Positions 12,501 through 46,355 of a DNA stretch of 64,000 nt are shown here, piece after piece. The DNA comes from a virus (taxonomy: Duplodnaviria; Heunggongvirae; Uroviricota; Caudoviricetes). Position numbers and translations under genes: made by a program. Each line of letters starts with the position of its first letter. Positions within the stretch are counted from its first letter, which is position 1. The stretch lies in the IMG/VR virus record IMGVR_UViG_3300022305_001387, positions 1 through 64,000 of that record. The stretch is one strand, 5' to 3'. Below the pieces are notes generated by a model. The model was not told the origin of the DNA and did not search any database. It was given only the letters and a program-made list of their open reading frames with translations.

Positions 12501-12716
12501 ATGCAAATAGAAAGAAAATGTAAAGTATGTCAAGAAGTTATACACCCACTTCGAGTGAAAATGGGATATTCAACTACATGTGTTAAACATTCAACTGCTG
12601 AGAGATACACAGGAGTTGTTGTAGCAGATCATAAAACAGCAGACTCTATTCAAATCATTAAAGATCCAGAAGTTGGTAGAAAATTGATGGAACTTAGTAA
12701 TGTTTATGATCATTAA
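12501..12716 (+). CDS. zinc-ribbon-like protein, paralog of 6836..7084
   Basis: CKVCQ...C.KHS; shared HKT..IQI motif. Confidence 0.5.
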   Translation: MQIERKCKVCQEVIHPLRVKMGYSTTCVKHSTAERYTGVVVADHKTADSIQIIKDPEVGRKLMELSNVYDH

Positions 12717-23314: not shown

Positions 23315-24265
23315 ATGATAAACAAAATCGGTTATGCTTGTATTAACATGACTCTCGGTAAATCAGCTACCACAAACAGAGGCATGACACTCAAAACATT
23401 TAAAGCCAAAGGTCCAGATTATGTATCTGAATTGGCACTTAAGAATGCACAAGACGTTATTAAGATTCTTAAGTGGAATGAAGAACACGGCATAAAAATG
23501 TTCAGGCTCTCATCTGCGCTGATTCCATGGGGCAATGTAGTTGATATAGATTCTCTAAAAGACATAGACCAGATAGCCGCAGCACTCAAGGAAGCAGGCG
23601 ATTACGCAGCAGAACACGGACACAGAATCACTACACACCCTGGTCCATACACAGTTATTGCATCTACAAATAATATTGTAGTAGTAAATGCCATAAAAGA
23701 TTTAGAGATGCACGCTAAAGTATTTGATCTTATGGGTTTGAGTAAAACTCCATATAACAAGATAAATATACATGTCAATACAACTACAAACGGCAAGAAA
23801 GAATCTATGAAAAGATTCTGCGATGCCTATTGGCATTTGTCAGATTCTGTAAGATCAAGATTGGTTGTAGAGAATGACGATAAAGCGAGTCAGTACTCAG
23901 TAGAAGATCTGATGTATGTACATGAATTGATAGGTATTCCAATTACATTTGATTATTTCCACCACTCTCATCAACCTGGATCTCTCACAGAGGAACAAGC
24001 GCTGAAATTGGCAGCAACTACATGGCCTGAAGGTATCACTCAAGCTACTCATTATAGTGAGAGTAAAAGATTACACGAAAACAATCCTAAAGAAAATGCA
24101 CGTGCACATTCGGATATGGTAAATAGCTTACCTGAAACTTATGGACTCGACATAGATGTAATGACAGAATGCAAACTTAAAGAACTTGCACTATTACCTC
24201 ATATGGATAGCATTACTAAGAAATTAATCTTTGAAGATAAAAAAGAATCGTTTATATTTATATAA
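23315..24265 (+). CDS. uvdE: UV DNA damage endonuclease (UvdE family)
   Basis: Colinear matches to Bacillus UvdE: RLSSALIPW, INIHV, VVENDDKASQY, ITFDYFHHS, RAHSDMV, DVMTECKLKELALL. Confidence 0.85.
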   Translation: MINKIGYACINMTLGKSATTNRGMTLKTFKAKGPDYVSELALKNAQDVIKILKWNEEHGIKMFRLSSALIPWGNVVDIDSLKDIDQIAAALKEAGDYAAEHGHRITTHPGPYTVIASTNNIVVVNAIKDLEMHAKVFDLMGLSKTPYNKINIHVNTTTNGKKESMKRFCDAYWHLSDSVRSRLVVENDDKASQYSVEDLMYVHELIGIPITFDYFHHSHQPGSLTEEQALKLAATTWPEGITQATHYSESKRLHENNPKENARAHSDMVNSLPETYGLDIDVMTECKLKELALLPHMDSITKKLIFEDKKESFIFI

Positions 24266-25548: not shown

Positions 25549-26094
25549 ATGTTTGATAAACTAATAGCTATAATACAACAATTTGGAGCTGCAGCATTGC
25601 CAATCTTTATTGTAGATATGTGGGAAATGAGTATAGTTCTAAGAGCGGGAAACTTTCTAAAGATAGCAAAACCTGGTTTACATTTTAAAATACCTTTCAT
25701 CGATTCTATTTGGAAACACACAATCATAACGCAATCTTTACACATACCGCCTCAATCTATAACAACGTGCGATAACGAAAATGTAGTGGTTAAAGGGATA
25801 ATAAGATTTAAAATAAGTGACATCAAATTGTTTCTAACCACCATCACAGAGCCCAAAGACGTTCTAATAGATACCACAGCTGGCATGATAAGAGAGATAA
25901 TAGAGAACACAGATTGGGAAGACTTAGTTGAAGTAGACGAGAAACTAACTCCAGCTGTTGCCAATTTTGTTAAGAAATGGGGTATAGAAGTAGAAAAGGT
26001 GACACTTACAGACTTGCAAATGGCTAATTCAATACGAGTGATAAATGATAATATGTTTGGAGCTCATGCAATTCCACTAGATCAATCCAATTAA
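25549..26094 (+). CDS. SPFH/band-7 (stomatin/prohibitin-like) domain protein
   Basis: N-terminal hydrophobic segment, then KPGLHFKIPFID...TQSL.IPPQSITTCDNENVVVKGIIRFKISD, characteristic of SPFH domains. Confidence 0.75.
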   Translation: MFDKLIAIIQQFGAAALPIFIVDMWEMSIVLRAGNFLKIAKPGLHFKIPFIDSIWKHTIITQSLHIPPQSITTCDNENVVVKGIIRFKISDIKLFLTTITEPKDVLIDTTAGMIREIIENTDWEDLVEVDEKLTPAVANFVKKWGIEVEKVTLTDLQMANSIRVINDNMFGAHAIPLDQSN

Positions 26095-26569: not shown

Positions 26570-26770
26570 ATGTTAGAATTCAAGAATCCTATTCCAGTAG
26601 TAGTAATAGAAGGCACTAAAGATGGCTATGCTATATACGTAACGAATGGAGGATCTTTTGAGAATGATATATGGTGTGTAGTGCTTTGCGAAGGAGGAAT
26701 AGTTAGACACTATAGATCAGATCAGATAAAGATATGTCACAATGCAACATTAGATATTAAAAAACAATAA
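26570..26770 (+). CDS. hypothetical protein (66 aa)
   Basis: ORF in track. Confidence 0.45.
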   Translation: MLEFKNPIPVVVIEGTKDGYAIYVTNGGSFENDIWCVVLCEGGIVRHYRSDQIKICHNATLDIKKQ

Positions 26771-26772
26771 TT

Positions 26773-27351
26773 ATGAAAGAAACAACAAATGAACAAACCA
26801 ATGGAGAAAGGTTTGATGAGTTTCTAAGAACAATAGAAGGCTATCCAGAATTAGAAGGTACGTTTAATCTATGTAGTGATATAATAAACAAGCACGCAAA
26901 TGAAAGTGTCCCTCTTCCAGATAAACTCCAAGATGAATTGCTAAGCGTACGAGAAATGAAGAAGTTACATGTTAAAGAACAAAGATACGCACTCGCAAGC
27001 ATATACAGAGAAGCAGAGAAAGAATTGCAAAGCTTGATTATAAATCAAAGCCAAAAACCAGAAGCGGAAGAACCAACATGTTCCAACTGTCAAATGTTGT
27101 TAAGCGCCATCGGAGTCGGTCAAGGCTTGATCTGCGACTTGAACAAATGTCGTATCCCTCACAGCAAGCACACTTGCCAATACCATTTCAAGACAGTGCC
27201 AAAAAGTGCAACGAGTGCAAGTTTTGATAGCCAAGACATAACGGACGAGCGTATCTACGAGGAATCTGCAAAACAAGGTTATATGATGCTGGCAACTCAA
27301 TTGGCCTGGGAAGATGGAGCTAAATGGTGTAGGAACGAACTCAAGAAATAA
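26773..27351 (+). CDS. Cys-rich hypothetical protein (192 aa)
   Basis: CSNC...C..NKC...C motif. Confidence 0.5.
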   Translation: MKETTNEQTNGERFDEFLRTIEGYPELEGTFNLCSDIINKHANESVPLPDKLQDELLSVREMKKLHVKEQRYALASIYREAEKELQSLIINQSQKPEAEEPTCSNCQMLLSAIGVGQGLICDLNKCRIPHSKHTCQYHFKTVPKSATSASFDSQDITDERIYEESAKQGYMMLATQLAWEDGAKWCRNELKK

Positions 27352-27411: not shown

Positions 27412-27687
27412 ATGAAAACAGGAACATCAACTCTAATGGACAACGTACTAAACAAAGACAGCGAAGCAAATAAATCAGGTAATTACGCAGAAGAATGGAT
27501 CATTAGTCCTCCACAAGAAGAAACTTTTACAGAACAAACTTTTACACTCAATACATCATTCACCCAAACCAATTTCGCAGGCTGCTACTCTGTAGGAGGA
27601 TTCAGTATTTACTTGGAAAAGAGACCAAAATGGTTACACAGGAAAATGATGAAGCTGTGTTTGGGATGGGAATGGATTGATAATTAA
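27412..27687 (+). CDS. hypothetical protein (91 aa)
   Basis: ORF in track. Confidence 0.45.
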   Translation: MKTGTSTLMDNVLNKDSEANKSGNYAEEWIISPPQEETFTEQTFTLNTSFTQTNFAGCYSVGGFSIYLEKRPKWLHRKMMKLCLGWEWIDN

Positions 27688-27707
27688 AACATTAAACGTA
27701 TAATACA

Positions 27708-27902
27708 ATGACTGAACAAGAACTACAAAACTTTCCACAAATGATATCTGCAAAAATGGTAGCTCAACAACAACTGATAGACTTGCTTACGAACCAAGTG
27801 GTAGACCTGAGTACGATGTCCAAGATCGAGATTGGAGACGACGTGATCGCTGAGATCAAGAGACTAAACGAAGAAATAGCCAAATTAAAACCAGAACAAT
27901 GA
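27708..27902 (+). CDS. hypothetical coiled-coil protein (64 aa)
   Basis: ORF; ATGA overlap downstream. Confidence 0.45.
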   Translation: MTEQELQNFPQMISAKMVAQQQLIDLLTNQVVDLSTMSKIEIGDDVIAEIKRLNEEIAKLKPEQ

Positions 27903-28177
27903 AACTAACAGAAGCAGAATGGCTTGAAGCCAATAATAAAACAGAAGAAGCAAATCCTGCCAAGCAAAAGGCGAGAGAGCTGCTACACAAGTTCTATTTG
28001 TCGTTGCCGAACAATGGAGGTTTTACAGGCATCAATAACATCAATGCCAGATGGGACGAAGGAAAGAAATGTGCCATAATGGCAATAAACGAGATAATAG
28101 ATGCTCTAGACAAATCCTTGATCCATTCAGACATAGAATGGTGGAAACAGGTTAAACAAGAATTAGAAAAGATATGA
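27899..28177 (+). CDS. hypothetical protein, paralog family B
   Basis: C-terminal W.QVKQELEKI shared with 28174..28443 (W.LVKQEIEKL). Confidence 0.5.
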   Translation: MKLTEAEWLEANNKTEEANPAKQKARELLHKFYLSLPNNGGFTGINNINARWDEGKKCAIMAINEIIDALDKSLIHSDIEWWKQVKQELEKI

Positions 28178-28443
28178 CAGAATATGAAGTAGAAACATGG
28201 TCGTCGTTCCATCACGACGAAGAAAGGATACTAAAAGCACAAGAAGAAGCAGAACGCTTATACAGTACGTTCTTGCCTTTAGCAAAAGGCGATACGTTAG
28301 ACGAGGTAAAGCACAACACCAAGCAGTGCGCCACAGCCGCAGCACGCATGTTGAAGGGACAGTATCTACAGCTGTGTACTGTAAAAGGACCGGCCAAATT
28401 AACCCATTGGGATCTAGTAAAACAAGAAATAGAAAAGTTATGA
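28174..28443 (+). CDS. hypothetical protein, paralog family B
   Basis: See above; ATGA overlap with the next gene. Confidence 0.5.
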   Translation: MTEYEVETWSSFHHDEERILKAQEEAERLYSTFLPLAKGDTLDEVKHNTKQCATAAARMLKGQYLQLCTVKGPAKLTHWDLVKQEIEKL

Positions 28444-28826
28444 CATCAATAGAATGGTTATATGCTGAATTAGCAAAAAATAATAACTCAAATAATTCAA
28501 TAAAAGAAAGGATATATAGACAAGCGCAAATATGGAAAGATGCAAAAGAAATGCACAAGCAAGAGATTGTAACTGCATTTTATGAAGGTCAAGAGTATGA
28601 GTACCAATACCATATTAACAATGCTCCTAAATTTGATTCAGAAACATATTATAAAGAAACATTTGTAAGTAAGGGAAGTGATGAAGCTCTTAAATGTAAT
28701 TGTAATGTAGATTCATTTCTATGTCAAATACATGGTACTTCTGACGGGGGAAACAATAACAGCCTTTTAAAACTAAAAAAGATTAATTATGAAAGAAGAA
28801 TTGCTGAAGTATTGCTACAAACATAA
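28440..28826 (+). CDS. hypothetical protein, MTSIEWL family (paralog of 35100..35483)
   Basis: Track ORF 28197 re-started at ATG 28440; shared N-terminus MTSIEWL and ETFVSKGSD/N; 3' end reads through the 19-nt boundary repeat. Confidence 0.5.
   Translation: MTSIEWLYAELAKNNNSNNSIKERIYRQAQIWKDAKEMHKQEIVTAFYEGQEYEYQYHINNAPKFDSETYYKETFVSKGSDEALKCNCNVDSFLCQIHGTSDGGNNNSLLKLKKINYERRIAEVLLQT
28773..28791 (+). repeat. 19-nt gene-boundary repeat CTAAAAAAGATTAATTATG (copy 1 of 4)
   Basis: Identical 19-mer at 29898, 35083, 35657, each ending in an ATG. Confidence 0.8.
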
Positions 28827-28924
28827 AAAAGAATATGTTTATGATGTTAGTCAACGTCAGTTTGATTCCTTAATTCTACTTATAGAAGAAGATAACATTA
28901 AAACTTATGAAGAACTAGCAAAAT

Positions 28925-29707
28925 ATGGAATGGATTATTAAAAACTTAAATAAAATGAAAAAAGAATTTATTAAATACGAACAAGCATTAGAACTTAAAG
29001 AACTTGGGTTTGATGAACCTTTTAATCCATTTGACACTTTTTATTATAGAAATGGTGATTTATGTGAAGCTAATAAAGATGCTGTAGAGTATTTTAATAG
29101 TTTTAATGATGAAGTAGTATTAGCACCACTATACCAACAAGCATTTAGATGGTTTAGAAAAAATCATGGACTTTATTCATCTATATTACCTAAAAAATCA
29201 TATCCTGACAATTATGTTTCAGGTGTAGAATGGTATGTAACAATTTGCGGTGGGGATGGAGTAGAAATTGGTCCTGATGGAACTTATACTTACGAAGAAG
29301 CAGAACTTGAATGTTTAAATAAACTTATTGAAATCGTTGGAACAATAGAATTTCCCAAACACCCATCTGTTATTTCTGAAAATGGTAATGAGTTACTTTT
29401 TGATAAAGAAGGTAATTTGATAAAAGAAGTAGTAGAAGATGATGTTGAGAAGTCGGCTGTAGAAGAATATCCTATTTATGATGGTGACTTATTAGGAATT
29501 GCAAATAACCAAAAACATAGTAGAATTGATTTTATCAAGGGTTACAACAAAGCCAAAGAAACTCTATATACAGATGAACAAGTTGATGAAAAACTTAGAA
29601 AAGGAATAGCAAAATTTCATAATTGGGCTACTGGTAAAGATTGGGATTCATTTTATGGAGATTATGAAATTAAAATTAATAATATTATACAAGAACTTAA
29701 AAAATAA
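28925..29707 (+). CDS. hypothetical protein (260 aa)
   Basis: ORF in track. Confidence 0.55.
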   Translation: MEWIIKNLNKMKKEFIKYEQALELKELGFDEPFNPFDTFYYRNGDLCEANKDAVEYFNSFNDEVVLAPLYQQAFRWFRKNHGLYSSILPKKSYPDNYVSGVEWYVTICGGDGVEIGPDGTYTYEEAELECLNKLIEIVGTIEFPKHPSVISENGNELLFDKEGNLIKEVVEDDVEKSAVEEYPIYDGDLLGIANNQKHSRIDFIKGYNKAKETLYTDEQVDEKLRKGIAKFHNWATGKDWDSFYGDYEIKINNIIQELKK

Positions 29708-29711
29708 AACA

Positions 29712-29894
29712 ATGATAAATTTAGAAAATGCAAATTTTATAGGAGAAGGAGAATGGATAAAAGATACAGCATATCAGGTATATGAACTTGATGGTAGATA
29801 TTATGCTGTCGTAGTAGTAGGTCATTCTAATAAGGAGGTTATTGATGATATGACAATAGAAATTAAAAAAGAAGACATTGGTAATTACATTTAA
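29712..29894 (+). CDS. hypothetical protein
   Basis: Internal ATG 29712 after the upstream stop. Confidence 0.45.
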   Translation: MINLENANFIGEGEWIKDTAYQVYELDGRYYAVVVVGHSNKEVIDDMTIEIKKEDIGNYI

Positions 29895-29897
29895 CAA

Positions 29898-29917
29898 CCT
29901 AAAAAAGATTAATTATG
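29898..29917 (+). repeat. 19-nt gene-boundary repeat (copy 2 of 4)
   Basis: CCTAAAAAAGATTAATTATG; ATG at 29915 starts the next gene. Confidence 0.8.
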
Positions 29918-30151
29918 AAATTCATAACACTAGCAGATAGCCAAGGACGTAGAGTCTTAATCAATCCAATGACGATAACAACACTACAGGAGGAAGAGGA
30001 TACAGATCTATTATTCAAGGCTAAGATATATACAATGGGAGGTGATAGAAGGCATGTAAGGGAGACTATAGAAGAGATCTTAGAGCTAATAAAAAAATCA
30101 GAAAACATTCATACAATCACCTGGGAGACAGAACCAAAATCAGATATATGA
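29915..30151 (+). CDS. hypothetical protein (78 aa)
   Basis: ORF after the boundary repeat. Confidence 0.5.
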   Translation: MKFITLADSQGRRVLINPMTITTLQEEEDTDLLFKAKIYTMGGDRRHVRETIEEILELIKKSENIHTITWETEPKSDI

Positions 30152-30474
30152 ATAAAGAACAACAGCAGATTGTTGATAAGGTATATGAAGAGTATGAGAG
30201 GCTTTGTCAATCACAGGAGCTTATTGATTATGACGATAAAGAGACCTTTATCAAAAGTATTAAGAATTATAGTATGGTTGCAAAGCGGTGGGGATTAAAG
30301 ATTGAGGAAAGAGAGTTGAGTGAAGAAGAAAGATACGACTTATATGAAGAAAAGTATATGTTTACTGAAACGATTGAGGAAAGGGGAATTGATTATAAAT
30401 ATAAAATACCAACCAAACTAATCACAGTAACATACGAAGGTAAAACAATAGAGAGTTATGATAGGAATAGATAG
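30148..30474 (+). CDS. hypothetical protein (108 aa)
   Basis: ATGA overlap. Confidence 0.5.
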   Translation: MNKEQQQIVDKVYEEYERLCQSQELIDYDDKETFIKSIKNYSMVAKRWGLKIEERELSEEERYDLYEEKYMFTETIEERGIDYKYKIPTKLITVTYEGKTIESYDRNR

Positions 30475-30664
30475 CATCAAACCACACTACGAGATAAGAG
30501 CAAGAGATATAGATCCGGATACGGGAGACGTGTCTAAGGATTGGGCATTGGCAATAGCAATGAAAAAAGAAGCAGCATACTTAATAGTTCATGCTATGAA
30601 TACAACAGATGACGAACCAAACAGAATGTATTACGCATTGCATAGAGAAGAAATAAAACAATAA
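30458..30664 (+). CDS. hypothetical protein, paralog family A
   Basis: See 26285. Confidence 0.45.
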   Translation: MIGIDSIKPHYEIRARDIDPDTGDVSKDWALAIAMKKEAAYLIVHAMNTTDDEPNRMYYALHREEIKQ

Positions 30665-30705
30665 CAAAAGGATAATATAATAATCATAATCCAGATAAGA
30701 CCAAG

Positions 30706-31020
30706 ATGATAGAGTGTACATGTATAAATGCAAACAATAGACCCAAAGAAATACCCAAAAACAAATGGGTAAAGAAGGGAAATACATACACCGTCATATA
30801 CACACTAACTGTATTGCCGCAACGACAGTTGGCGTTCCATCTGCAAGAGATAGATCTGGACGAATCAAATGCACCATACGAATACTTCTTAGCTAATAGA
30901 TTTGCATTTAAACCTGAAGCGCTGGATGAGTTAATGGATCTGATTAAAGCATGTAGTGATACAGACTTTTCAATGGAAGAGCTGCTAAAGCAGACAGAGC
31001 TGGTGACAGCCACGACGTAA
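30706..31020 (+). CDS. hypothetical protein (104 aa)
   Basis: Plus-strand ORF preferred over antisense 30684..31034. Confidence 0.5.
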   Translation: MIECTCINANNRPKEIPKNKWVKKGNTYTVIYTLTVLPQRQLAFHLQEIDLDESNAPYEYFLANRFAFKPEALDELMDLIKACSDTDFSMEELLKQTELVTATT

Positions 31021-31260
31021 TCAAATCGACACAAGCTCCACCGAAATCGGAAGACACACTAAATATAAACAATCACGACCACACCAACAGCAATAACCCC
31101 TATGCATAGACTGCCGCTTCTTCCCCGTGGCATACACCACCCACCTCCCCACATGGGCATCCCCATATTCTTGTATATCCGTATTAAGGATAAACATAAT
31201 ACACAACGCGTTGATGAGTCGGACACAGAATCCAAGCCTGTCCCTAACTCGTTGGTTGCC
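31021..31260. other. non-coding C/A-rich strand-asymmetric region
   Basis: No convincing ORF; CCACCCACCTCCCCACATGGGCATCCCC C-tracts; precedes promoter module D. Confidence 0.3.
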
Positions 31261-31261
31261 A

Positions 31262-31379
31262 ATAAAAACTTTTGAAAATACTTGTATAATTATTTTTTAG
31301 TGTCAAAATGTTGTCGTATATTACATATATAATCAATCAAGCAGCTGCAAACCAGCTCAAAAACTAAAAAAAACATAAT
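31262..31379 (+). promoter_or_regulatory. conserved promoter/5'UTR module, copy D (partial)
   Basis: TTTTGAAAATACTTG..TATTTTTTAGTGTCAAAATGTTGTCG...AAAAAAAACATAATATG, parallel to copy C. Confidence 0.45.
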
Positions 31380-31667
31380 ATGACACAAGCCAATGCCACT
31401 AACAGTTACACACTAACAACAATGAACAGCGACCAAGTCTACATGTATATGAAACGTAATGCCCACAAGACTTCTAACACGAACTTGGATTGTTTAGCAG
31501 AAGCCATTCTTACTTCTTATGGATTCGATACTGATATTAACAAGAGCGATCTTAAGCTTATAGCTATTATGCCAGGATATATGTCGGACTTGGACTTCAG
31601 AACTATGGAATGCCATGTATCAACGCAGATGACGGTCGTGCCTTTCTCGGTTGCACACGTTGACTAA
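31380..31667 (+). CDS. hypothetical protein (95 aa)
   Basis: ORF after module D. Confidence 0.5.
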   Translation: MTQANATNSYTLTTMNSDQVYMYMKRNAHKTSNTNLDCLAEAILTSYGFDTDINKSDLKLIAIMPGYMSDLDFRTMECHVSTQMTVVPFSVAHVD

Positions 31668-31736
31668 TCACACCAGATCCAATGCCCTATTACCTTTCAT
31701 CTAATTCTATTTAAAATAAAAAAAACAATTAAAGTT

Positions 31737-32627
31737 ATGAACAAGAACATCATCCTTTCAGCTCTTCAATCTCAGTTACAAACAGTTAAAGCAGACGCTA
31801 TCGCCCATGAGAACGACGTCTACACGCCAGCATTGGCAAAGCTTACAAGCAAGATCAAAGTTTATTTCGATCAGTACGTTGCTCAGAACATTCACGACAT
31901 CTCTATTGCTTCTGATCGTATCACTATCCAACCTAATGACGATACGTCTTACGGAAACACTATCAGCATTGATTATCGTGGCAGTTGGAGAAACGACGGA
32001 GCCTATTTCGAAACTTCTTCTTACCGTCCAGATCTAAAGTCTAACGAAGACAATACCAATACCGTCCGCTATTACAAAACTTTGGCTGCTATTGCTAACA
32101 CATTCGATTTGATCTGCGAGCAGTACAAGACCAAATGGTTGACTGCATTTGCCAAGATCGAATCAGCCAAGTCTGACAAGTACTCTGAGATCTACAAGAT
32201 CGAAAGAGAGATCAGAACCTGCGAGGCTGAGATTGCTGAATTAGAGAAAGAGAAGTATAACCAATCTGGCATTGAATTGACGTTGAAGCCTACGGCCAAT
32301 TACGATTCTTGCTATGACAACAACGAGTGCGTGTATACCAAGAAGATGGTTGAGCACCATATCAAGGCTCATTACGGTCGTAGCAAATACGATTACGCTT
32401 ACATCAATTCGTTCAAGGTTGTTTCATTCCCTAAAGCCAAGCACGGCAAGGTTATATTAGAATGGAAAGGTGGAGCTGATGACACTAAGACACGTACAGT
32501 TGAGCTGAACAAACAACGTTACGCTGAGTTCATCTCAGAAGTACACAACTGGCAAACTAAAGGTGCTGTTGAAAGAGAAGAGAGCATCGACGAAAGAATC
32601 GCTAGATACAATAAAGTAGACGCCTAA
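31737..32627 (+). CDS. hypothetical protein (296 aa)
   Basis: Preceded by AATTAAAGTTATG. Confidence 0.6.
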   Translation: MNKNIILSALQSQLQTVKADAIAHENDVYTPALAKLTSKIKVYFDQYVAQNIHDISIASDRITIQPNDDTSYGNTISIDYRGSWRNDGAYFETSSYRPDLKSNEDNTNTVRYYKTLAAIANTFDLICEQYKTKWLTAFAKIESAKSDKYSEIYKIEREIRTCEAEIAELEKEKYNQSGIELTLKPTANYDSCYDNNECVYTKKMVEHHIKAHYGRSKYDYAYINSFKVVSFPKAKHGKVILEWKGGADDTKTRTVELNKQRYAEFISEVHNWQTKGAVEREESIDERIARYNKVDA

Positions 32628-32775
32628 TCTAAATCACTAAACAATTAAACACATATGTTATGTAACACACATATAACCATACCATAATATGAGGTTAGAC
32701 TTCCTACCAAAAAGTTAATCTTCTCTATATCACCAGAATCAATTAATTTTATCTATAATCAAAACAATAAAAGTT

Positions 32776-33609
32776 ATGTCACAATCAGTATCGCCTAAGG
32801 CACAATCGTTTAAAGCAGGAGCAATCAATTCAATCAGCATGGAAGTAGCCAAGCAACAGGCACCAGCCATCTTCGCTACCGAACCCGCATCGTATATCAA
32901 CCAGAACAGGTATCACTTCACACCTACCTTCGAGATCATAGACATGATGAAGGATATGGGTTATGCATTAACCGGAGCCAAGCAGAGCAAGACTAAGATA
33001 CCTCTGCGTCATAATCACGGAGTACACATCGTAGAGTTCCAGCATCCTGATCTGTATGTAAAGGACAGCACTAACAACGAGATAGAAGCCAGACCTACCA
33101 TCGTTATGGTTAACTCATCAGATGGCTCTAGACCGTTTGACTTTCAGATGGGTATGTTCAGATTGGTATGTAGTAATGGCCTAATCGTTAAGAGCAAAGA
33201 CTTAGGTGGCTTCAAAGAGAGACACACCAAATATAACTTCACTGATCTCAAGGCCATGATCAGCAGCAAAGTAGATTCATTACCTAAGACCATAGAGAAA
33301 ATTAATACATGGACTGGCATAGAGATGGATGCCAAGACCAGACACGCATTCGCAGTAGAAGCTCTAGCTCTCAGATTAGGCAATGATCGTCAAGCAGAGA
33401 CCTACGAGATTCATTCAATCCTGTCCGCTAAACGTAAAGAAGACGAGCCAAACAATCTATGGTGCACATTCAATCGTGTACAAGAGAACCTGATCAAAGG
33501 CGGCTTTCAAATCAACGAAAGGCAAGCACGCCCTATCACCAACCCTTGGCAAGACCTACAGTTGAATCAAAGCCTGTGGACATTAGCTGAAAAGTACGAA
33601 GCCTGTTAG
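32776..33609 (+). CDS. DUF932-like protein
   Basis: VNSSDGSRPFDFQMGMFRLVCSNGLIV resembles the ..HDGS..F....G.FRLVCSNG motif I associate with DUF932 proteins of phages/ICEs (recollection, not a search). Confidence 0.45.
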   Translation: MSQSVSPKAQSFKAGAINSISMEVAKQQAPAIFATEPASYINQNRYHFTPTFEIIDMMKDMGYALTGAKQSKTKIPLRHNHGVHIVEFQHPDLYVKDSTNNEIEARPTIVMVNSSDGSRPFDFQMGMFRLVCSNGLIVKSKDLGGFKERHTKYNFTDLKAMISSKVDSLPKTIEKINTWTGIEMDAKTRHAFAVEALALRLGNDRQAETYEIHSILSAKRKEDEPNNLWCTFNRVQENLIKGGFQINERQARPITNPWQDLQLNQSLWTLAEKYEAC

Positions 33610-33770
33610 TAGTCACGAGTGGAACCGGTTGTCCACAAGTTGGACGCCGGCGACCCACTAGTTACCCACTAGCTCTCCGCAAAAGGGCTAATATTCGTAG
33701 CTAGCGCTTTGGTAAGGGGGCCCGGGGGGCTTTACTCCTCACCAACCCCAAGGAATTTTCAAAAAAGTCA
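33610..33770 (+). other. GC-rich, probably structured, non-coding element
   Basis: GTGGAACCGGTTGTCCAC hairpin; direct repeat CCCACTAG-TTA-CCCACTAG; inverted CTAGCT..AGCTAG; GGGGGCCCGGGGGGC; GC far above local background. Confidence 0.35.
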
Positions 33771-33884
33771 AATAATTTATTTACGTAAATATAAAAAACA
33801 AGTTATGCAAATCATCGAATCACAAATTCAAATCTTATCGGGTTATCCCAAGCCAATCAGTATCATTCATCTAAATTAAAGACT

Positions 33885-34001
33885 ATGAGCGACTTCGCAA
33901 TCATGGTGCTAATAGCATTACCAAACATTATATTCTGCGCCGTAATATTCGCCATGGATATAGCAAACTGCATTGAAAATCGTAAAAATAAAAACAAATG
34001 A
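33885..34001 (+). CDS. small membrane protein (38 aa)
   Basis: Hydrophobic AIMVLIALPNIIFCAVIFAM; ATGA overlap with 33998. Confidence 0.3.
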   Translation: MSDFAIMVLIALPNIIFCAVIFAMDIANCIENRKNKNK

Positions 34002-34402
34002 AAAAACTAACAGCACAACAAGAGCGAGCTTGGACGGAAACCGCATCTGTCGTACATTTCATGAACATTGTACAAGAGGCAAAAGAGAAGTTGCCAGCAT
34101 TAGCAGCAGAGCTCAACGCCAATGAGTTTCACACATCATTTAGTATCGAACAAGAGCACGACTCCAAAGACATTGAATTCTCATGTAAAATTAATTGTAC
34201 GTTTGGCAAATGGAGCAACTATCATTGTGGCAGTTACATCAATGACACGCATGACTTCGATGCAGCGGCCAACAGCATACGTGAGATGCACGCCAAATGG
34301 AAAAAGGAAGAGGACGCAAGAGAGCGCAAGCGCGAAGAAGATAGAATCAAGCAAGCACTCTACGAAGACTACCGAGCGCAATTATCCAGCACACCATTCT
34401 AA
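33998..34402 (+). CDS. hypothetical protein (134 aa)
   Basis: ORF in track. Confidence 0.5.
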   Translation: MKKLTAQQERAWTETASVVHFMNIVQEAKEKLPALAAELNANEFHTSFSIEQEHDSKDIEFSCKINCTFGKWSNYHCGSYINDTHDFDAAANSIREMHAKWKKEEDARERKREEDRIKQALYEDYRAQLSSTPF

Positions 34403-34418
34403 ACCAAAAAAACAAGTT

Positions 34419-34682
34419 ATGACACCGAGACAATACAACGAGTTAAACAGACAAGCAGACGTGATAGAGCAACACACGCACTCCGAGATCGAGCGCCAGT
34501 TGCAAGAGATGCAAGCCAACAAGAAATATATAGCTATGGAATTATGGCCTCCACCGGGACAAAATAGAATTCAGCCTCTTGGCAATGAGATGCGCATCAA
34601 CGAAGGCAGAGCCGGCAAGTGGACAGGAGTCAGCGAAGCGTTCTACGACACTATGGCCAAGAAATATGACTCACGAGGCTAA
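34419..34682 (+). CDS. hypothetical protein
   Basis: Track ORF 34122 re-started at ATG 34419 after AAACAAGTTATG; the upstream part overlaps 33998..34402. Confidence 0.45.
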   Translation: MTPRQYNELNRQADVIEQHTHSEIERQLQEMQANKKYIAMELWPPPGQNRIQPLGNEMRINEGRAGKWTGVSEAFYDTMAKKYDSRG

Positions 34683-34749
34683 AACGCACCGGGGACGGGG
34701 ATTGAATTTTTACATTCTAAACAATTATATTTACATAAATACATTACAT

Positions 34750-35097
34750 ATGAGTGGAGGAGCATTTGAATACAAGCAATATAACATCAGCCAAATTGCT
34801 GATGAGATTGAACAGTTTATCCGAGACAACGGTCGTCCTAAAACGGCGCAAGAATTGAGAGATGAAAGTTGGGGCAGAGATGCCTCATGGTATGAAAAGT
34901 ATCCCGAATATTTGAATTACCATGCATATCCAGACGACATCATCGAAGAGTTTAAACGAGGTCTGCACATAATGAGACAAGCCTACATCTATGCTCAACG
35001 CATTGATTGGTTGCTTAGCGGCGATGATGGAGAGGACTCTTTTCGCAGCCGGTTACAAGCAGAACTTAACGCATTAGAAAAAACTAAAAAAGATTAA
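34750..35097 (+). CDS. hypothetical protein
   Basis: Track ORF 34579 re-started at ATG 34750. Confidence 0.5.
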   Translation: MSGGAFEYKQYNISQIADEIEQFIRDNGRPKTAQELRDESWGRDASWYEKYPEYLNYHAYPDDIIEEFKRGLHIMRQAYIYAQRIDWLLSGDDGEDSFRSRLQAELNALEKTKKD

Positions 35098-35102
35098 TTA
35101 TG
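35083..35102 (+). repeat. 19-nt gene-boundary repeat (copy 3 of 4)
   Basis: ACTAAAAAAGATTAATTATG; the upstream gene ends ..KKD* inside it. Confidence 0.8.
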
Positions 35103-35483
35103 ACATCAATAGAATGGTTAATAGAACAATTTAATCTACAAGCATATACTCCTCACATTGAAAAAGCCAAAGAAATGCACAAAGCTGAACTTGGTAAGAC
35201 ATGGGATGCTGCATTAGATGCAGGGCAGAGTAGAGCATGGAATGTTATGAGAGCTTATGAAGACTTTGATGAATGGTATGAAACATTTGTAAGTAAGGGA
35301 AGTAATGACCATATTGTTGACACCAACGAAATGGTAGATATTTCCCAACAAGAAACTCTATATACAGAAGAACAAGTTAGGGAAGCAATATCAAAATCTG
35401 TATCTATTTTAGTTGGTCAAGAAATTAATTTAGCACAATTAAAAGAATTAACTATCCAATCACTTAAACAACCTAAACAATGA
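35100..35483 (+). CDS. hypothetical protein, MTSIEWL family
   Basis: Paralog of 28440..28826. Confidence 0.5.
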   Translation: MTSIEWLIEQFNLQAYTPHIEKAKEMHKAELGKTWDAALDAGQSRAWNVMRAYEDFDEWYETFVSKGSNDHIVDTNEMVDISQQETLYTEEQVREAISKSVSILVGQEINLAQLKELTIQSLKQPKQ

Positions 35484-35671
35484 AAAATAAACTAAAACAA
35501 TTAATAGGTTGGATTAGATTAAAAATTTGGGGTTTCTGTCCTAAATGTAATTCTGATGCACCTAAATTGTATGATTGTGAAGTTTGTAATTGGGAAAACC
35601 AATATGAAGGTTACAAATTTGTATGGTGGAATAGATTTATTAAACAACTTAAACAACCTAAAAAAGATTAA
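35480..35671 (+). CDS. small zinc-ribbon-like protein
   Basis: CPKCNS...CEVC. Confidence 0.45.
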   Translation: MKNKLKQLIGWIRLKIWGFCPKCNSDAPKLYDCEVCNWENQYEGYKFVWWNRFIKQLKQPKKD

Positions 35672-35676
35672 TTATG
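35657..35676 (+). repeat. 19-nt gene-boundary repeat (copy 4 of 4)
   Basis: CCTAAAAAAGATTAATTATG. Confidence 0.8.
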
Positions 35677-35913
35677 ACATCAAATAAAGCAGATTGGCTA
35701 ACAGAACGAGTCTTAGAACGAGCTCAATGGTATTACACAACCAGTTATCAACGCTGGGCGTTAGAACTTAGTCACGACAAAAATGTTACTATTGCCAAAG
35801 ACATTGCAGTTTTCGTTGTGATTGAACTGCAAAGCCAAACTGAAGACGATTTTTGGTCGGAAGTCAAGCACACTATTATCCGACTCCAGCATAAGGAGTT
35901 ATACAAACCTTAA
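35674..35913 (+). CDS. hypothetical protein (79 aa)
   Basis: ORF in track. Confidence 0.45.
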   Translation: MTSNKADWLTERVLERAQWYYTTSYQRWALELSHDKNVTIAKDIAVFVVIELQSQTEDDFWSEVKHTIIRLQHKELYKP

Positions 35914-35922
35914 AAATAGCAT

Positions 35923-36228
35923 ATGACACAAGAACAACAACAAGACATTCAAGACAAGTTGGATCGACTCACAGATTTGGTAAAAACATCAAACGCAGAG
36001 GCACAAGACTTTGTGATGAGCAATCGCGCAGTCACTTGCATACAAATCATCGGTAAATTCTGTGATGGTCCAGTACAGACGATATTGTCTATGGAAGCTG
36101 TCCAGAGCTGCAGGGAATGTACAACTCTGCAAGACCTTATAGAAACAATAGCTCAACACATGGACTTCGACAGCGAAGCTCAGGGCGCTTCATTCATTTT
36201 AAACTATTTAGACTATGAAATTGATTAA
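35923..36228 (+). CDS. hypothetical protein (101 aa)
   Basis: ORF in track. Confidence 0.5.
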   Translation: MTQEQQQDIQDKLDRLTDLVKTSNAEAQDFVMSNRAVTCIQIIGKFCDGPVQTILSMEAVQSCRECTTLQDLIETIAQHMDFDSEAQGASFILNYLDYEID

Positions 36229-36511
36229 GTGGAAATACAAACCAAGTGGCAACTGCCCGGTACAAGCTGAAGGAGAATTTCTCGGTTGGTACTTTTACTT
36301 TCGTGCTAGACACGACAAGGCCACCATCGAGTTTTCTCGTACCGAAGCGGGTTGGGAAAACGAATTGATTCACGCACGATATGTGCTGGCTACTGAACCT
36401 GATCCGATGGCTGGATGGATGCCAAAATGGAAATGTAGATTTCTTATATACGTCGGGTGCATGCTCTTCTTTTTTAAACGAAACAAACACGAACTCTATG
36501 TCTCACATTAA
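36215..36511 (+). CDS. hypothetical protein (98 aa)
   Basis: ORF in track. Confidence 0.4.
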   Translation: MKLIKWKYKPSGNCPVQAEGEFLGWYFYFRARHDKATIEFSRTEAGWENELIHARYVLATEPDPMAGWMPKWKCRFLIYVGCMLFFFKRNKHELYVSH

Positions 36512-36767
36512 ATATTGCTCTACATACACAAGTACCAAGTGCAACTGTCCCGATGGTGTGTGTCGCAGACAAGCGGCGGAGGCAGAAGCAGAACGATTCA
36601 AGTTAGACAAACGTCAACGTATGCAACAGTTCATAGATGATCTCACCGACTTTCAATTGTTTCTACGTGACAAAGGCTACATCACCGATCACGATTGGGC
36701 CTACGAGGACGAGGCCACCGAGTTTGCCTATCAAACTATGGCGTATAGATTGGAACTCGAAAACTAG
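36498..36767 (+). CDS. Cys-rich hypothetical protein
   Basis: Internal ATG 36498 of the track ORF 36381; CSTYTSTKCNCPDGVC. Confidence 0.4.
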   Translation: MSHIKYCSTYTSTKCNCPDGVCRRQAAEAEAERFKLDKRQRMQQFIDDLTDFQLFLRDKGYITDHDWAYEDEATEFAYQTMAYRLELEN

Positions 36768-36875
36768 ATTTTCTGGTTGTCCTGAATAGTTTTTTATTTA
36801 TGTAAATACTAACATATCGGGACCACAAAGCATTTATGTACTCGAAAGCATACCATTGGATCTGCTAAGAGTCAA

Positions 36876-36994
36876 AGTCAGATGGTGAAATGGTAGACAC
36901 TATGGCAAGTAACTGAATCCTGAAGGCTGCAACCTAATGGCAGTAAGTGAACCCATACCGGACGCGGTTGTAGGTTCGATTCCTACTCTGACTA
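36876..36994 (+). tRNA. tRNA-like gene 1 (119 nt; class-II-type D arm, long interior)
   Basis: Acceptor AGTCAGA/TCTGACT+A, D region GGTGAAATGGTAGACAC, T arm GTAGG-TTCGATT-CCTAC, stem-loop ACCG-GACG-CGGT before the T arm; ~30 nt longer than canonical, anticodon arm not placeable by eye. Confidence 0.5.
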
Positions 36995-37010
36995 CTAAAA
37001 AATAAAAGTT

Positions 37011-37113
37011 ATGAGAAATTTTGATAAAGAATTTAAAGATTGGAAATCTGAGATGATAGGGTTTTTATTAGCTGGTTTCATCTTAGGAGTTTGTTTTGGA
37101 ATATTAATATAGA
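37011..37113 (+). CDS. small hydrophobic peptide (33 aa)
   Basis: After AAAAAATAAAAGTTATG; IGFLLAGFILGVCFGILI. Confidence 0.3.
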
Positions 37114-37121
37114 TATTATTT

Positions 37122-37227
37122 AGTCAGGTGGCGGAATAGAGCAGACGCTAAAATAACGAGTGGACAGCGTGCCATTGGGGAAGAGCCATAAAAGTTACGC
37201 ATACAGGTTCGAATCCTGTCCTGACTA
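37122..37227 (+). tRNA. tRNA-like gene 2 (106 nt)
   Basis: Acceptor AGTCAGG/CCTGACT+A, GGCGGAATAGAGCAGACGC D region, T arm ACAGG-TTCGAAT-CCTGT; long interior. Confidence 0.5.
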
Positions 37228-37229
37228 CA

Positions 37230-37392
37230 GACTTTCACCTATGGCTGTGCAAAGAACTGGTGAAACCCATTAGGAGCCGCAGACTCATTGAATGGGGGCG
37301 TAGGCAACATGAACCTACAACGGTAGAGTGCCTGTAACCGGGTATACCGGCTCCGCAAGAGACCGGGTGACCGTGGAAATCTCTACCAACAT
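37230..37392 (+). other. GC-enriched structured spacer between tRNA-like genes
   Basis: GGTAGAG...CTCTACC long-range pairing, CCGG-GTATA-CCGG hairpin, GTAGG..CCTAC; the track ORF 37328..37513 here looks spurious. Confidence 0.25.
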
Positions 37393-37481
37393 AGTCAGGT
37401 GGCGGAATTGGTCGCTAGTTAATAATAAGGGTCAGTGCTTAGCTCCCGAAAATGATACAGGTTCGATTCCTGTCCTGACTA
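37393..37481 (+). tRNA. tRNA-like gene 3 (89 nt; Leu-like class II 5' half)
   Basis: AGTCAGG-TG-GCGGAATTGGTCGC closely resembles the bacterial tRNA-Leu 5' half; T arm ACAGG-TTCGATT-CCTGT; acceptor CCTGACT+A; central region atypical. Confidence 0.55.
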
Positions 37482-37502
37482 CTAATCAAAAAATAAAAGT
37501 TT

Positions 37503-37718
37503 ATGACAATTGAATTTATCAAAGAAACAAAAGCAAATGGCGACCAATTGTATTACACTAAAGTCGATGACATGTACATTAGTTCAACACTATCGTTTAA
37601 CATAGACGAAGCAAAAGCAATGTACGATAACGTAGTAAAAAACAACGGTAAGTACGTTACTATAGAAGTATTAGAATCAGTAGAGATAGATGATGCAACT
37701 GGTGGTGAAGTATTCTAA
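37503..37718 (+). CDS. hypothetical protein (71 aa)
   Basis: After AAAAATAAAAGTTTATG. Confidence 0.5.
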   Translation: MTIEFIKETKANGDQLYYTKVDDMYISSTLSFNIDEAKAMYDNVVKNNGKYVTIEVLESVEIDDATGGEVF

Positions 37719-37721
37719 TAT

Positions 37722-37794
37722 GCCGCGTTAGAAAAATTGTTAAGTCGTCTCCCTTTCACAGAGAAGATTACGGGTTCGAGTCCCGTACGTGGTA
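37722..37794 (+). tRNA. candidate tRNA (73 nt), anticodon loop CTTTCAC (UUC, Glu?)
   Basis: Acceptor GCCGCGT/ACGTGGT (two G.U), T arm ACGGG-TTCGAGT-CCCGT, anticodon stem TCTC/GAGA; weak D stem. Confidence 0.45.
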
Positions 37795-37821
37795 CAAAGA
37801 CTTTATAAATTTATAATGTTA

Positions 37822-38100
37822 TTATTTAATTTGGCCGATATATTGAAATCCACCAACAGCAGGAGGTTTTTGAAATTTCAATCCACCATCTTTTACCAGT
37901 TTTTCTTTATTCACAAAGGCAAAAGTTTTTTCACCAAAAGCAGCAATCATTTTTACATTGCATGCTTGCATCAATCTAGATTCGCCTATTGATACAGCTT
38001 TGATAGCATCTTCTTTGGTAGAGAATTTAAAATATACTGATTGAGTTTTAACGTCTTCTGTAAGATCAAAATTAATTCCTAATATTTGAATTTTTTTCAT
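37822..38100 (-). CDS. hypothetical protein (92 aa), lone minus-strand gene in the plus-strand array
   Basis: Start taken at internal ATG (MKKIQILGINFDL...); the overlapping plus-strand track ORF 37789..37992 is low-complexity. Confidence 0.5.
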   Translation of the reverse strand: MKKIQILGINFDLTEDVKTQSVYFKFSTKEDAIKAVSIGESRLMQACNVKMIAAFGEKTFAFVNKEKLVKDGGLKFQKPPAVGGFQYIGQIK

Positions 38101-38148
38101 GAGTATCTTTATTAATAAATATAAATCAATATTAAAAAACAACAAGTT

Positions 38149-38397
38149 ATGCACAAAACAATTTCATTAGTAGCAATCGCTATTGCATTAATCGCTTTAA
38201 TCGGATGGGCAGCACAAGGCTGCGTAGACACGAAACATAAATATGAGATCGAATATGGCCACGGCAAGTGGGCTTTATCTGATTTCACAGACAGCTTCGT
38301 ATTAGACGGCAGTATCAGATACATTAACGAACACGGAGATTCCGTTCGTAGATACGGTACCTTTTCAGTGAGTAATAATAGAGACTACCGAAAATAA
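38149..38397 (+). CDS. small secreted/membrane protein
   Basis: Signal-like N-terminus ISLVAIAIALIALIGWAAQGC. Confidence 0.5.
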   Translation: MHKTISLVAIAIALIALIGWAAQGCVDTKHKYEIEYGHGKWALSDFTDSFVLDGSIRYINEHGDSVRRYGTFSVSNNRDYRK

Positions 38398-41103: not shown

Positions 41104-41688
41104 ATGAAAACTTTACTAACTATTGTATTAGTGTTTTTGTTTTCTTTGACAAAGGCACAAAATCCGGATACAGTTCAATACAATGCTACTAATCTATCTA
41201 TATATCAAGTAGCAAATACTCCCGGAGTAGTTTACACATGGACCATTGCCTACCCAGGAATTATCCTTAGTGGACAAGGCACTAACACAATCACGGTCGA
41301 TTGGGGATTAACGAATCCCGGATACATTATAAATGCAGTTTCAGTGTTTGCGACAAATCAATCTAGTTGCAAAAGTCCAATTTCTTTTTTGGACATTTTC
41401 GTACCAATACCGTTATCTTCTATTTTTTTTCCAAACAGTTTTACTCCAAATGGTGATGGATTGAACGATGGGTGGTCTCCAATCACTTTCAATATAGTCA
41501 AAATCAAGTGGCAAGTTTACAACAGATGGGGTGAGTTAGTCTATCAGTGTAGCGATATAGGAAAAAAATGGAATGGAGAATACAAAAATGAGAAACAGCC
41601 AATAAGCAATTTTGTTTTTCAGTGTTGGTGGAAAGGGGTTGATGGTAAAACTGGATTTCAAAAAGGAAACCTAATATTAATCCGATGA
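41104..41688 (+). CDS. secreted protein with T9SS type-B (gliding-motility-associated) C-terminal sorting domain
   Basis: Signal peptide; C-terminal FFPNSFTPNGDGLNDGW...VYNRWGELVY...WNG...GNLILIR matches the T9SS type-B CTD consensus. Confidence 0.75.
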   Translation: MKTLLTIVLVFLFSLTKAQNPDTVQYNATNLSIYQVANTPGVVYTWTIAYPGIILSGQGTNTITVDWGLTNPGYIINAVSVFATNQSSCKSPISFLDIFVPIPLSSIFFPNSFTPNGDGLNDGWSPITFNIVKIKWQVYNRWGELVYQCSDIGKKWNGEYKNEKQPISNFVFQCWWKGVDGKTGFQKGNLILIR

Positions 41689-45731: not shown

Positions 45732-46355
45732 ATGAAACTTATACTCTCAATAATCGCCTTTTTATTTGCGTCTTATGCTAATGCTAGTGTTGATACAAGT
45801 AGAGAGGCGCTTATTAGAGTGTTTAAAAAAGAAAAGGAGTTAGAGCTATGGATAAAAAGCGGAAACAAATTTACTTTATACAAAAAATACAAGGTATGCA
45901 AATTAAGTGGAAAATTTGGACCAAAAAGGGAAGAAGGCGATCTTCAAGTTCCCGAGGGAGTTTATGAAGTAAATATATTAAATCCACATAGTAATTATAA
46001 AAAATCCATAGGCATTAATTATCCAAACAAATCTGATAGTATCTTAAGCCAATATGCACATAAAGGAGGATTAATATTCATTCATGGTAATTGCGTATCT
46101 GTAGGATGCATAGCAATAGGAGATCAAAATATAGAAGAGCTATACAAATTAGTTTCTAAGTGCAATAAAACCTATGTGCATATATTTCCAGCAAAATTTG
46201 ATGAATCGAGTGATTATATTGAAAAAAATCTAGTAGAAAAACCTGAATTGACTGAATTCGAATTAGACTTATATCAAGTGTACTTGTATTTTAATCAGCT
46301 TAAAATCCTACCGAAAATTGAAATATCTGATGAGGGCAGATATATCATAGAATAA
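45732..46355 (+). CDS. L,D-transpeptidase (YkuD)-like secreted protein
   Basis: Signal peptide; IFIHGNCVSVGCIAIG resembles the YkuD catalytic H...SxGC motif. Confidence 0.5.
   Translation: MKLILSIIAFLFASYANASVDTSREALIRVFKKEKELELWIKSGNKFTLYKKYKVCKLSGKFGPKREEGDLQVPEGVYEVNILNPHSNYKKSIGINYPNKSDSILSQYAHKGGLIFIHGNCVSVGCIAIGDQNIEELYKLVSKCNKTYVHIFPAKFDESSDYIEKNLVEKPELTEFELDLYQVYLYFNQLKILPKIEISDEGRYIIE

Follow-up and report, generated by a model that had tools for sequence, protein, structure and literature searches.

A recurrent 19-nucleotide stop–start sequence at the boundaries of AT-rich small-gene cassettes in an uncultivated tailed phage

The window analysed here is a 64,000-nucleotide (nt) stretch of DNA from an uncultivated tailed phage (Caudoviricetes), comprising positions 1 to 64,000 of the IMG/VR record IMGVR_UViG_3300022305_001387. 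Its organisation is phage-like, with genes packed densely on the plus strand to ∼51.6 kb and on the minus strand thereafter. Within the plus-strand portion lie two AT-rich islands of small genes, at or within the edges of which a 19-nt sequence, CTAAAAAAGATTAATTATG (referred to here as the 19-mer), occurs in four exact copies, all on the plus strand (copies 1 to 4; Table 1). The four copies were noticed in a first-pass annotation of the same DNA and are real, although three of the positions then listed were one base off (the correct starts being 29899, 35084 and 35658). When up to three mismatches were permitted, six matches were found in the window as opposed to 0.31 expected, and none of 100 shuffled sequences reached six; a chance origin of the four copies is excluded. 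The identity between copies extends to 24 nt in the pair at 28769/35080 and to 26 nt in the pair at 29892/35651, as previously described, and a further 26-nt identity, CTAAAAAAGATTAATTATGACATCAA, which includes ATGACATCAA, is shared by the copies at 35084 and 35658.

The 19-mer can be parsed as ...AAA AAA GAT TAA tt ATG, such that the stop codon of the upstream gene is situated 2 nt before the start codon of the next. Each copy does indeed end in a start codon, as had been proposed, and the terminal ATGs of copies 1 to 4 open reading frames (ORFs) of 50, 78, 127 and 79 aa, respectively. Stop codons are present at positions 12-14 (TAA, in what is termed here the KKD* frame) and at positions 2-4 (TAA, in the frame of the ATG), the third frame being open, and the element is constructed such that an incoming reading frame will end within it in two cases out of three. 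The upstream ORFs in the window behave as originally described. At 35084 and 35658 the preceding ORF closes within the repeat as ...KKD*. The copy at 29899 is intergenic, since the preceding ORF stops 4 nt ahead of the repeat (ATT TAA CAA CCT AAA AAA GAT TAA); the sequence at this point is a canonical ...LKQPKKD* tail bearing one nonsense change, AAA to TAA. At 28773 the MTSIEWL-family ORF 28440-28826 traverses the repeat in the stop-free frame and overlaps the next gene. The possibility of a simple frameshift in this 28440 gene relative to its paralogue gained no support, the KKD* frame being open for only 4 codons upstream of the repeat and no homologue having been found for the adjoining segment 28686-28769. 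The sequence directly 5' of copy 1, AACAGCCTTTTAAAA at 28759-28772, resembles a partial second junction (AACAACCT...) and may be a recombination scar.

Considering 64 copies together (4 from the window and 60 from other viral contigs, described below), the upstream ORF terminates within the 19-mer in 61; the KKD* frame is used in 53 (83%), the second stop in 8 and the open frame in 3. The claim that the repeat marks gene boundaries irrespective of reading frame was therefore overstated, even though copies of the second-stop and open-frame kinds do exist. Among 20 one-mismatch variants, 12 differ at position 1 and 4 at position 14; the latter are all A14G, the commonest internal change, in which the stop codon is kept (TAA to TAG). 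This TAG variant, GATTAGTTATG, is concentrated in certain viral contigs (L-numbers are labels of the IMG/VR contigs compared with the window), accounting for three of the four copies in L004 and for both copies in each of L115, L129 and L148, a clustering which suggests that junction copies become homogenised within one genome.

Structure prediction leaves the element more unpaired (0.63) than random windows (0.47). No palindrome, inverted repeat or conserved RNA structure was found at the four copies, and a terminator scan revealed no terminator-like site at any of them. A scan for sigma-70-like promoters, which does not cover promoters of the Bacteroidota type, found no plus-strand site overlapping any copy, and promoter-like sites in the region were fewer than in shuffled sequences (20 versus 27). 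The Bacteroidetes -7 box is TAnnTTTG, and TAATTATG agrees with it at five of the six specified positions; a promoter reading of TAATTATG was nevertheless rejected, as the transcription start site would fall inside a gene and there is no -33 TTTG. An Rfam scan of 27500-38200 returned three tRNA matches only, none at the repeats. Neither GGAG nor AGGA, as would be expected of a Shine-Dalgarno (SD) sequence, is present inside the 19-mer, and leaders across the window likewise have no SD.

The islands themselves are distinguished by base composition at third codon positions (GC3), which is 0.12-0.20 in islands A and B as opposed to 0.3-0.5 in the surrounding genes, with a value of 0.42 in the gene to the left of island A. 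Copies 3 and 4, separated by 574 nt from start to start, form the exact limits of island B, whose two genes have GC3 values of 0.18 and 0.16 versus 0.38 and 0.36 in the flanking genes. Island A contains copy 1 and ends at copy 2, where GC3 steps from 0.15 to 0.32. At the sequence level both islands are patchworks in which pieces of 40-230 nt show 85-98% identity to numerous contigs (40-210 nt and 85-95% for island A; segment 35355-35477 of island B, for example, is 98.4% identical to L014), whereas the resident block at 31.2-33.8 kb aligns over kilobases, at 71-82% identity, to backbone relatives.

Table 1. Location of the junction copies, islands and adjacent genes in the window
Feature	Position	Strand	Remarks
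Junction copy 1	28773..28791	+	5' edge of 50-aa gene cassette; read through by the 28440 ORF
Junction copy 2	29899..29917	+	Right edge of island A; 5' edge of 78-aa gene cassette
Junction copy 3	35084..35102	+	Left edge of island B; gives gene 34750-35097 its ...TKKD* tail
Junction copy 4	35658..35676	+	Right edge of island B; start of resident gene 35674-35913
AT-rich island A	28440..29894	+	Genes 28440-28826 (MTSIEWL domain), 28789-28941, 28955-29707 and 29712-29894
AT-rich island B	35100..35671	+	Genes 35100-35483 (MTSIEWL, 127 aa) and 35480-35671 (63-aa CxxC...CxxC protein)
78-aa gene cassette (MKFITLADS...) after copy 2	29915..30151	+	
Resident 89-aa gene (W..VKQEIEKL*)	28174..28443	+	Left edge of island A; ATGA overlap, no 19-mer
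Resident 115-aa gene (MSGGAF...)	34750..35097	+	Last codons replaced by junction sequence
Resident 79-aa gene	35674..35913	+	Three opening codons (MTS, ATGACATCA) agree with the cassette's right flank
Alternative junction type CACTTAAACAACCTAAACAATGA	35462..35483	+	...LKQPKQ* with ATGA stop/start overlap
Resident junction of like architecture, diverged sequence TTAAAAAACAATAATTATG	26757..26775	+	...KKQ* tt ATG; 3 mismatches to the 19-mer; matches AAAAAANNNTAATTATG

Next, the window was compared with related contigs, and each of the four copies was found to coincide with a point at which homology breaks. At copy 1, homology to L040 (91.7% over 181 nt) begins at 28770 with nothing similar upstream, and only the 50-aa gene is shared. 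At copy 2, L322 is 93.9% identical over 29890-30152 only, corresponding to the 78-aa gene plus junction, and the flanks differ on both sides. At copy 3, the orthologue of gene 34750-35097 in L313 and L310 (81% identity at the amino acid level, 84% at the nucleotide level) runs to 35105 and then abuts the next gene via CCATAATTATGACAC; these contigs represent an empty site for island B. At copy 4, homology to the closest relatives, L320 and L321 (∼87% nt identity over 1.2 kb and 8.4 kb; 86.7% over the 8.4 kb), begins at 35659, the second base of the copy. To the left of this point the same two contigs carry different genes, namely a gene of 111 aa and a 67-aa MTQTSIEWL gene with the C terminus ...NNTFKKD*, and their orthologues of the 79-aa gene start MEDKQHWLAERVLERAQ... 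as opposed to MTSNKADWLTERVLERAQ... in the window.

Further comparisons revealed that L323 and L324 are 92% and 90% identical to the window up to 28443 and then pass directly to a homologue of 30148-30474, such that the window has a 1.7-kb insertion (28444-30147, comprising island A and the 78-aa cassette) that is absent from these relatives. The 63-aa gene of island B recurs in L030 at 97.3% nt identity between the same two junction types, with different neighbours (match 35462-35686), and in the backbone relative L307 the same junction links three AT-rich cassettes at a different location. Overall, 11 of 120 endpoints of alignments of at least 100 nt (27.0-37.5 kb) fall within 12 nt of the four copies, compared to ∼2 expected. 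The alignments show that the repeat is a junction shared by single-gene or few-gene cassettes that have been moved between phages. The idea of a cassette-shuffling site, which was to be abandoned should relatives lack the repeat or show no variation in gene content, has thus held up, the gene content of relatives varying exactly at these junctions.

The KKD* ending is absent from 47 homologues checked of gene 34750-35097, and the L313 orthologue ends ...TLANTPKP* where the window has ...ALEKTKKD*, the two proteins being of equal length and differing in the last 6 codons. These observations argue that the KKD* tail belongs to the junction and not to the upstream protein family, which is in keeping with the original view of the repeat as a signal at the level of nucleic acid.

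The distribution of the exact 19-mer was then examined more widely. In IMG/VR viral contigs there are 60 copies in 50 stretches, several of which have two or three copies, as opposed to 38 matches in 596 Gb of cellular genomes. Conserved flanks, upstream ...CTTAAACAAC (...LKQP-KKD*) and/or downstream ACATCAATAGAA (MTSIEW...), accompany 28 of 55 unique viral copies (window included) and none of 37 unique cellular copies; since none has conserved flanks, the cellular matches look like chance occurrences, and they yielded no prophage or host identification. Among cultured phages there was no significant match, a 70-nt consensus junction gave chance matches only, and the region had no megablast hit. 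Despite the identity of the element, 1566 of 1596 pairs of unique copies have no shared flank of at least 40 nt, with 19 pairs sharing the left flank only (mostly supplied by the gp47 group considered below) and 1 the right only. Carriers are contigs of 25-41% GC with different backbones, so the 19-mer is not confined to one phage cluster, and the proteins encoded downstream of its copies are diverse. Wherever a locus has two or more copies (26 loci), all of them point the same way and are spaced by approximately one small gene. No published description of this motif was found in the literature consulted.

These data also bear on whether the copies might be no more than remnants of tandem duplication within this genome, or artefacts of chimeric joining at short repeats during metagenome assembly. 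The window does derive from an uncultivated source, and it contains three W..VK-type genes as well as a pair of MTSIEWL paralogues (28440 and 35100). However, there is for the most part no relationship between the sequences flanking the four copies, the same junction is found in dozens of independent contigs, and the exact proteins encoded in the islands and beside them have each been catalogued on 2-4 JGI contigs (the longest of 107,775 nt). Moreover, repeats of 19-26 nt are shorter than usual assembler overlaps, and two chimeric joins would be needed per island, rendering paralogy or artefact highly improbable.

Flank-anchored scans indicated that several recurrent leaders precede the MTSIEWL start, and that the junction exists as a few discrete types. 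The anchor CAATCACTTAAACAACC (...QSLKQP) continues as the 19-mer type in 13 of 34 loci and as TAAACAATGA, a stop/start overlap, in ∼12 of 34, while among 120 protein homologues of the 127-aa gene the tail is KKD in 38 and PKQ in 19. A homologue search with the 127-aa MTSIEWL protein returned 161 unnamed metagenomic proteins, whereas tblastn against cultured phages gave no match, and neither Pfam nor PHROGs assigned a function to the cassette proteins. For the 127-aa protein, AlphaFold gave a weak model (pLDDT 69, pTM 0.28), with two helical parts and a disordered VSKGS... linker. The MTSIEWL proteins (28440-29707 and 35100-35483; also L020:4037-4462) have the character of domain mosaics, with an N-terminal helical module (MTSIEWL...YYxETF), the VSKGS... 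linker and interchangeable C-terminal modules; indeed, L020 directly joins two segments that are found in separate window genes, 28440 and 28955.

With regard to the host, the baseplate wedge protein of the window is 45% identical to that of Flavobacterium phage vB_FspM_immuto, the nearest cultured relative. The proteins encoded at 41104-41688 and 41913-43289 have PKD domains, the former with a CHU_C type IX secretion (T9SS) sorting domain in addition; these appear to be unusual phage cargo, and point to a Bacteroidota host. A-rich leaders with no SD precede nearly all genes in the window. On the basis of the CHU_C protein, the Flavobacterium-phage baseplate homology and these leaders, the window probably derives from a large phage with a Bacteroidota host. 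A second and commoner class of start leader, ATAAAAGTTATG (up to 1 mismatch), has 18 matches in the window versus 1.7 expected, located at 5800-12600 and also at 31728, 32767, 37002 and 47532. Most of these are in an array of ∼20 small genes, each of which follows a near-identical ∼25-nt leader (AATTAATCAATAAAAAATAAAAGTTATG), and the W..VK gene family encodes a version of the same class in its conserved C-terminal tail (...QEIEKL*, GAAATAGAAAAGTTATGA).

In Flavobacterium johnsoniae, initiation is promoted by adenines at -13, -12, -6 and -3 (A-13, A-12, A-6 and A-3; Baez et al. 2019, PMC6847099). On the same numbering the 19-mer has A at -14 to -9 and at -3, and therefore three of the four promoting adenines (A-13, A-12 and A-3). 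Like the SD-less start regions of the Bacteroidia, in which an A-run at -14 to -11 would be expected, it combines an A-run that includes A-13 and A-12 with A-3, no SD, no additional AUG nearby and low predicted structure. In host genes, however, these features amount to a loose preference, as opposed to the exact sequence encountered here, and the invariant GATTAATT is not explained by the published determinants (PMC6847099). The match to Bacteroidia initiation determinants is consistent with the coupled-translation signal suggested in the first-pass annotation.

The reading favoured here, to which a probability of roughly 0.62 is attached, is that the 19-mer is a portable stop-start initiation junction that also provides short homology for the exchange of AT-rich small-gene cassettes among uncultivated phages that probably infect Bacteroidota. 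At the level of mRNA, the element would end the upstream gene, TAA being present in two of three frames, and would present the next ATG in an unstructured, SD-less leader in which the A-run at -14 to -9 and A-3 should favour initiation in the Bacteroidia; the stop situated 2 nt before the start could permit termination-reinitiation. At the level of DNA, a junction present at both cassette ends and at resident gene boundaries would offer the recombination systems of phage or host 17-50 nt of homology, through which whole genes could be inserted, deleted or swapped and remain translatable. As a side effect, upstream proteins would gain a ...KKD tail.

Several observations weigh against this portable-junction reading. 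The left edge of island A is an ATGA overlap only, without the repeat. Breakpoints also cluster at gene starts that have no repeat (28440, 30148, 34750 and 35480), such that selection for intact genes alone would explain part of the pattern, and the alignments from which endpoints were counted are non-independent, many being from near-identical contigs. In orthologous pairs the junction shows no clear excess of conservation over its flanks (18 of 18 nt in L320 versus 87%, and a 1-nt deletion in L322), and what conservation there is could reflect recent transfer rather than selection. On the translational side, A-6 is absent, position -6 being T (GATTAATTATG), and the proposed role depends upon a match to determinants from one Flavobacterium species. 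Additionally, a lineage with an Mre11/gp47-like gene has the 19-mer natively (...SKKD*), decaying with divergence. Eight viral 19-mer matches follow this gene, whose family natively ends ...S/K-K-K/N-D*, and since the 19-mer arose natively at the ends of these genes, some of the 50 viral matches are convergent rather than portable. A 408-nt gene located right after the 19-mer in L015, considered initially as evidence of a cassette, was downgraded to an ordinary boundary indel for the same reason, the Mre11/gp47-like gene of that lineage natively ending ...SKKD*.

Taken further, the latter observations would make the 19-mer a near-optimal SD-less initiation region that has been reached independently on many occasions, with no part in recombination or mobility. 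The closest members of the Mre11/gp47-like group, which end ...SKKD* TAA, have the full 19-mer without the portable flanks, other repeated leader classes such as ATAAAAGTTATG and resident junctions of like architecture are present in the window, and the sequence fits known start-site determinants. Convergence of start sites would not, however, account for the identity that, in 28 of 55 copies, runs on for 10-15 nt past either side of the start-site region, for whole cassettes that are 92-98% identical in otherwise unrelated contexts, or for the GC3 islands, the breakpoints that fall exactly at the copies and the empty sites in relatives. As a complete explanation, convergence is considered improbable.

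Repeats of this kind might instead be bound by a phage regulator that co-controls early genes, either a translational repressor acting on start regions, as T4 RegA does, or a DNA-binding protein. The copies are exact, occur in a single orientation throughout and are fixed in position relative to the ATG, and variants such as the TAG form are homogeneous within a genome, all of which would be expected of an operator. Conversely, no candidate regulator was identified, there is neither a palindrome nor a conserved RNA structure, and the element is dispersed over very different phage backbones of 25 to 41% GC. Since the islands and breakpoints would also be left unexplained, a regulatory operator is thought to be quite unlikely.

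The possibility that the 19-mer is a dedicated mobility site, targeted in integron-like or homing-like fashion by a site-specific recombinase, homing endonuclease or similar, derives from the presence of single-gene cassettes with the same sequence at both sides and from the high similarity of cassettes across backbones. Matches to HNH or homing-endonuclease-like genes are present elsewhere in the window (1250-1951 and 51700-52158 on the minus strand). No integrase or recombinase was found in or near the islands or among the window proteins scanned (the window representing 64 kb of a genome that measures 108 kb or more), and, in contrast to integron attC and other site-specific sites, the repeat has no inverted-repeat structure at its copies. 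Crossover points are variable also, including the ATGA overlap, the other junction type and internal linkers. Indeed, the short conserved linkers ETFVSKGS, PKHPSVISENGNELLFDKEGNLIKE and ETLYTEEQV, as well as the MTSIEWL start, are likewise situated at crossover points, and exchange accordingly looks to be driven by homology rather than to be site-specific; general homology-driven exchange fits better than a fixed cut site, and a dedicated site seems very unlikely.

A bolder extension of the portable-junction reading is that phages of Bacteroidota harbour a self-propagating system of mini-cassettes, of which the junction would be the cis-acting end. Single small genes, bounded on both sides by a specific ∼20-50-nt stop-start sequence, would be moved between co-infecting phages once that sequence is recognised by a recombinase, a nuclease or replication template-switching dedicated to the task. 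If true, such a system would represent a translation-coupled counterpart of integron cassettes, but it is regarded as quite unlikely.

The closest precedents are provided by other phages. The promoter early stem loops (PeSLs) of T4-type phages are intergenic cassettes that combine a sigma-70 promoter with a terminator-like stem-loop and a Shine-Dalgarno sequence, and recombination between copies yields excised mini-circles, a criterion for these elements (Arbiol et al. 2010, PMC2839356; Comeau et al. 2014, PMC4122927). In common with PeSLs, the 19-mer is a short repeat located between small non-essential genes in hyperplastic regions, spans the interval from a stop codon to the next start, marks indels and replacements between close relatives (here with respect to L313, L320/L321, L322, L323/L324, L040 and L030) and is proposed to supply homology for modular shuffling. 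It differs in having no promoter match or stem-loop at any copy, in overlapping the last three codons of the upstream gene with a core of only 17-19 nt, and in that it would act at the level of translation, if at all.

The start-associated sequences (SAS) of cluster K mycobacteriophages are GC-rich, 13 bp in length with an SD core (AGGAG), and present in 11-19 copies per genome in one phage cluster (Pope et al. 2011, PMC3203893). Both SAS and the 19-mer are asymmetric, occur in one orientation within a few bases of the ATG of non-structural genes from different families, and sometimes contain the upstream stop codon; a role in translation initiation is suspected for both. SAS are absent from host genomes, and no cellular copy of the 19-mer has the extended flanks. 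In contrast to SAS, the 19-mer is A-rich, has no SD, is present in 4 copies in the window and on many backbones, and coincides with homology breakpoints, whereas SAS have not been linked to cassette exchange (PMC3203893).

More generally, the boundary or 'linker' sequence model of phage mosaicism predicts short conserved sequences at module junctions with unrelated DNA beside them (as summarised in PMC3029335), a prediction that the 19-mer fits in view of the scarcity of copy pairs with a shared flank. Here, however, the boundary is explicit and recurrent, and it would double as a start region that overlaps coding sequence. Morons, as these are portrayed in the introduction of PMC3029335 and in part as commonly understood, are extra phage genes of deviant composition with their own promoter and terminator. 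Like morons, the islands are additions of deviant base composition, inserted among resident genes and missing from relatives, but no promoter or terminator of their own was detected in the scans, and the cassettes are in translational continuity with their neighbours.

Overall, the 19-mer is a clear and recurrent boundary sequence of a type that is rarely documented, with a predicted function, although the concept itself is not new. It is explicit, recurrent in dozens of uncultivated phages, and tied to gene gain and loss in relatives at 84-92% nt identity. A boundary that doubles as a start region overlapping the end of the previous gene suggests how phages of SD-less hosts might exchange genes and yet keep them expressed, and would explain the ...KKD tail common to unrelated small proteins. 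In practical terms, the motif may be of use in finding accessory-gene cassettes in Bacteroidota phage metagenomes, and is a candidate for use as a portable start region when Flavobacterium or Bacteroides are engineered.

Other features of the window were noted in passing. A palindrome, TATTTAC(A/G)TAAATA, is present in intergenic positions at 24255, 33778, 34728 and 36795, in each case just 5' of a gene start and after a GC-rich stretch. It is kept in the relatives L050, L107, L307, L308 and L313, but with different first genes behind it, and these are likely candidate promoter or operator sites that mark transcription units. The region 36968-37795 contains four copies of a tRNA T-arm-like repeat, of which the copy near 36968 is uncalled. 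ARAGORN identified tRNAs for Ile(aat) at 37393-37482 (90 nt) and Glu at 37722-37795, and the third tRNA match from Rfam is an unusually long tRNA-like sequence at 37122-37227 (106 nt, 31.5 bits). Recognisable accessory domains are encoded at 23315-24265 (UvdE UV endonuclease), 25549-26094 (SPFH/Band 7), 32776-33609 (DUF932) and 45732-46355 (YkuD L,D-transpeptidase).

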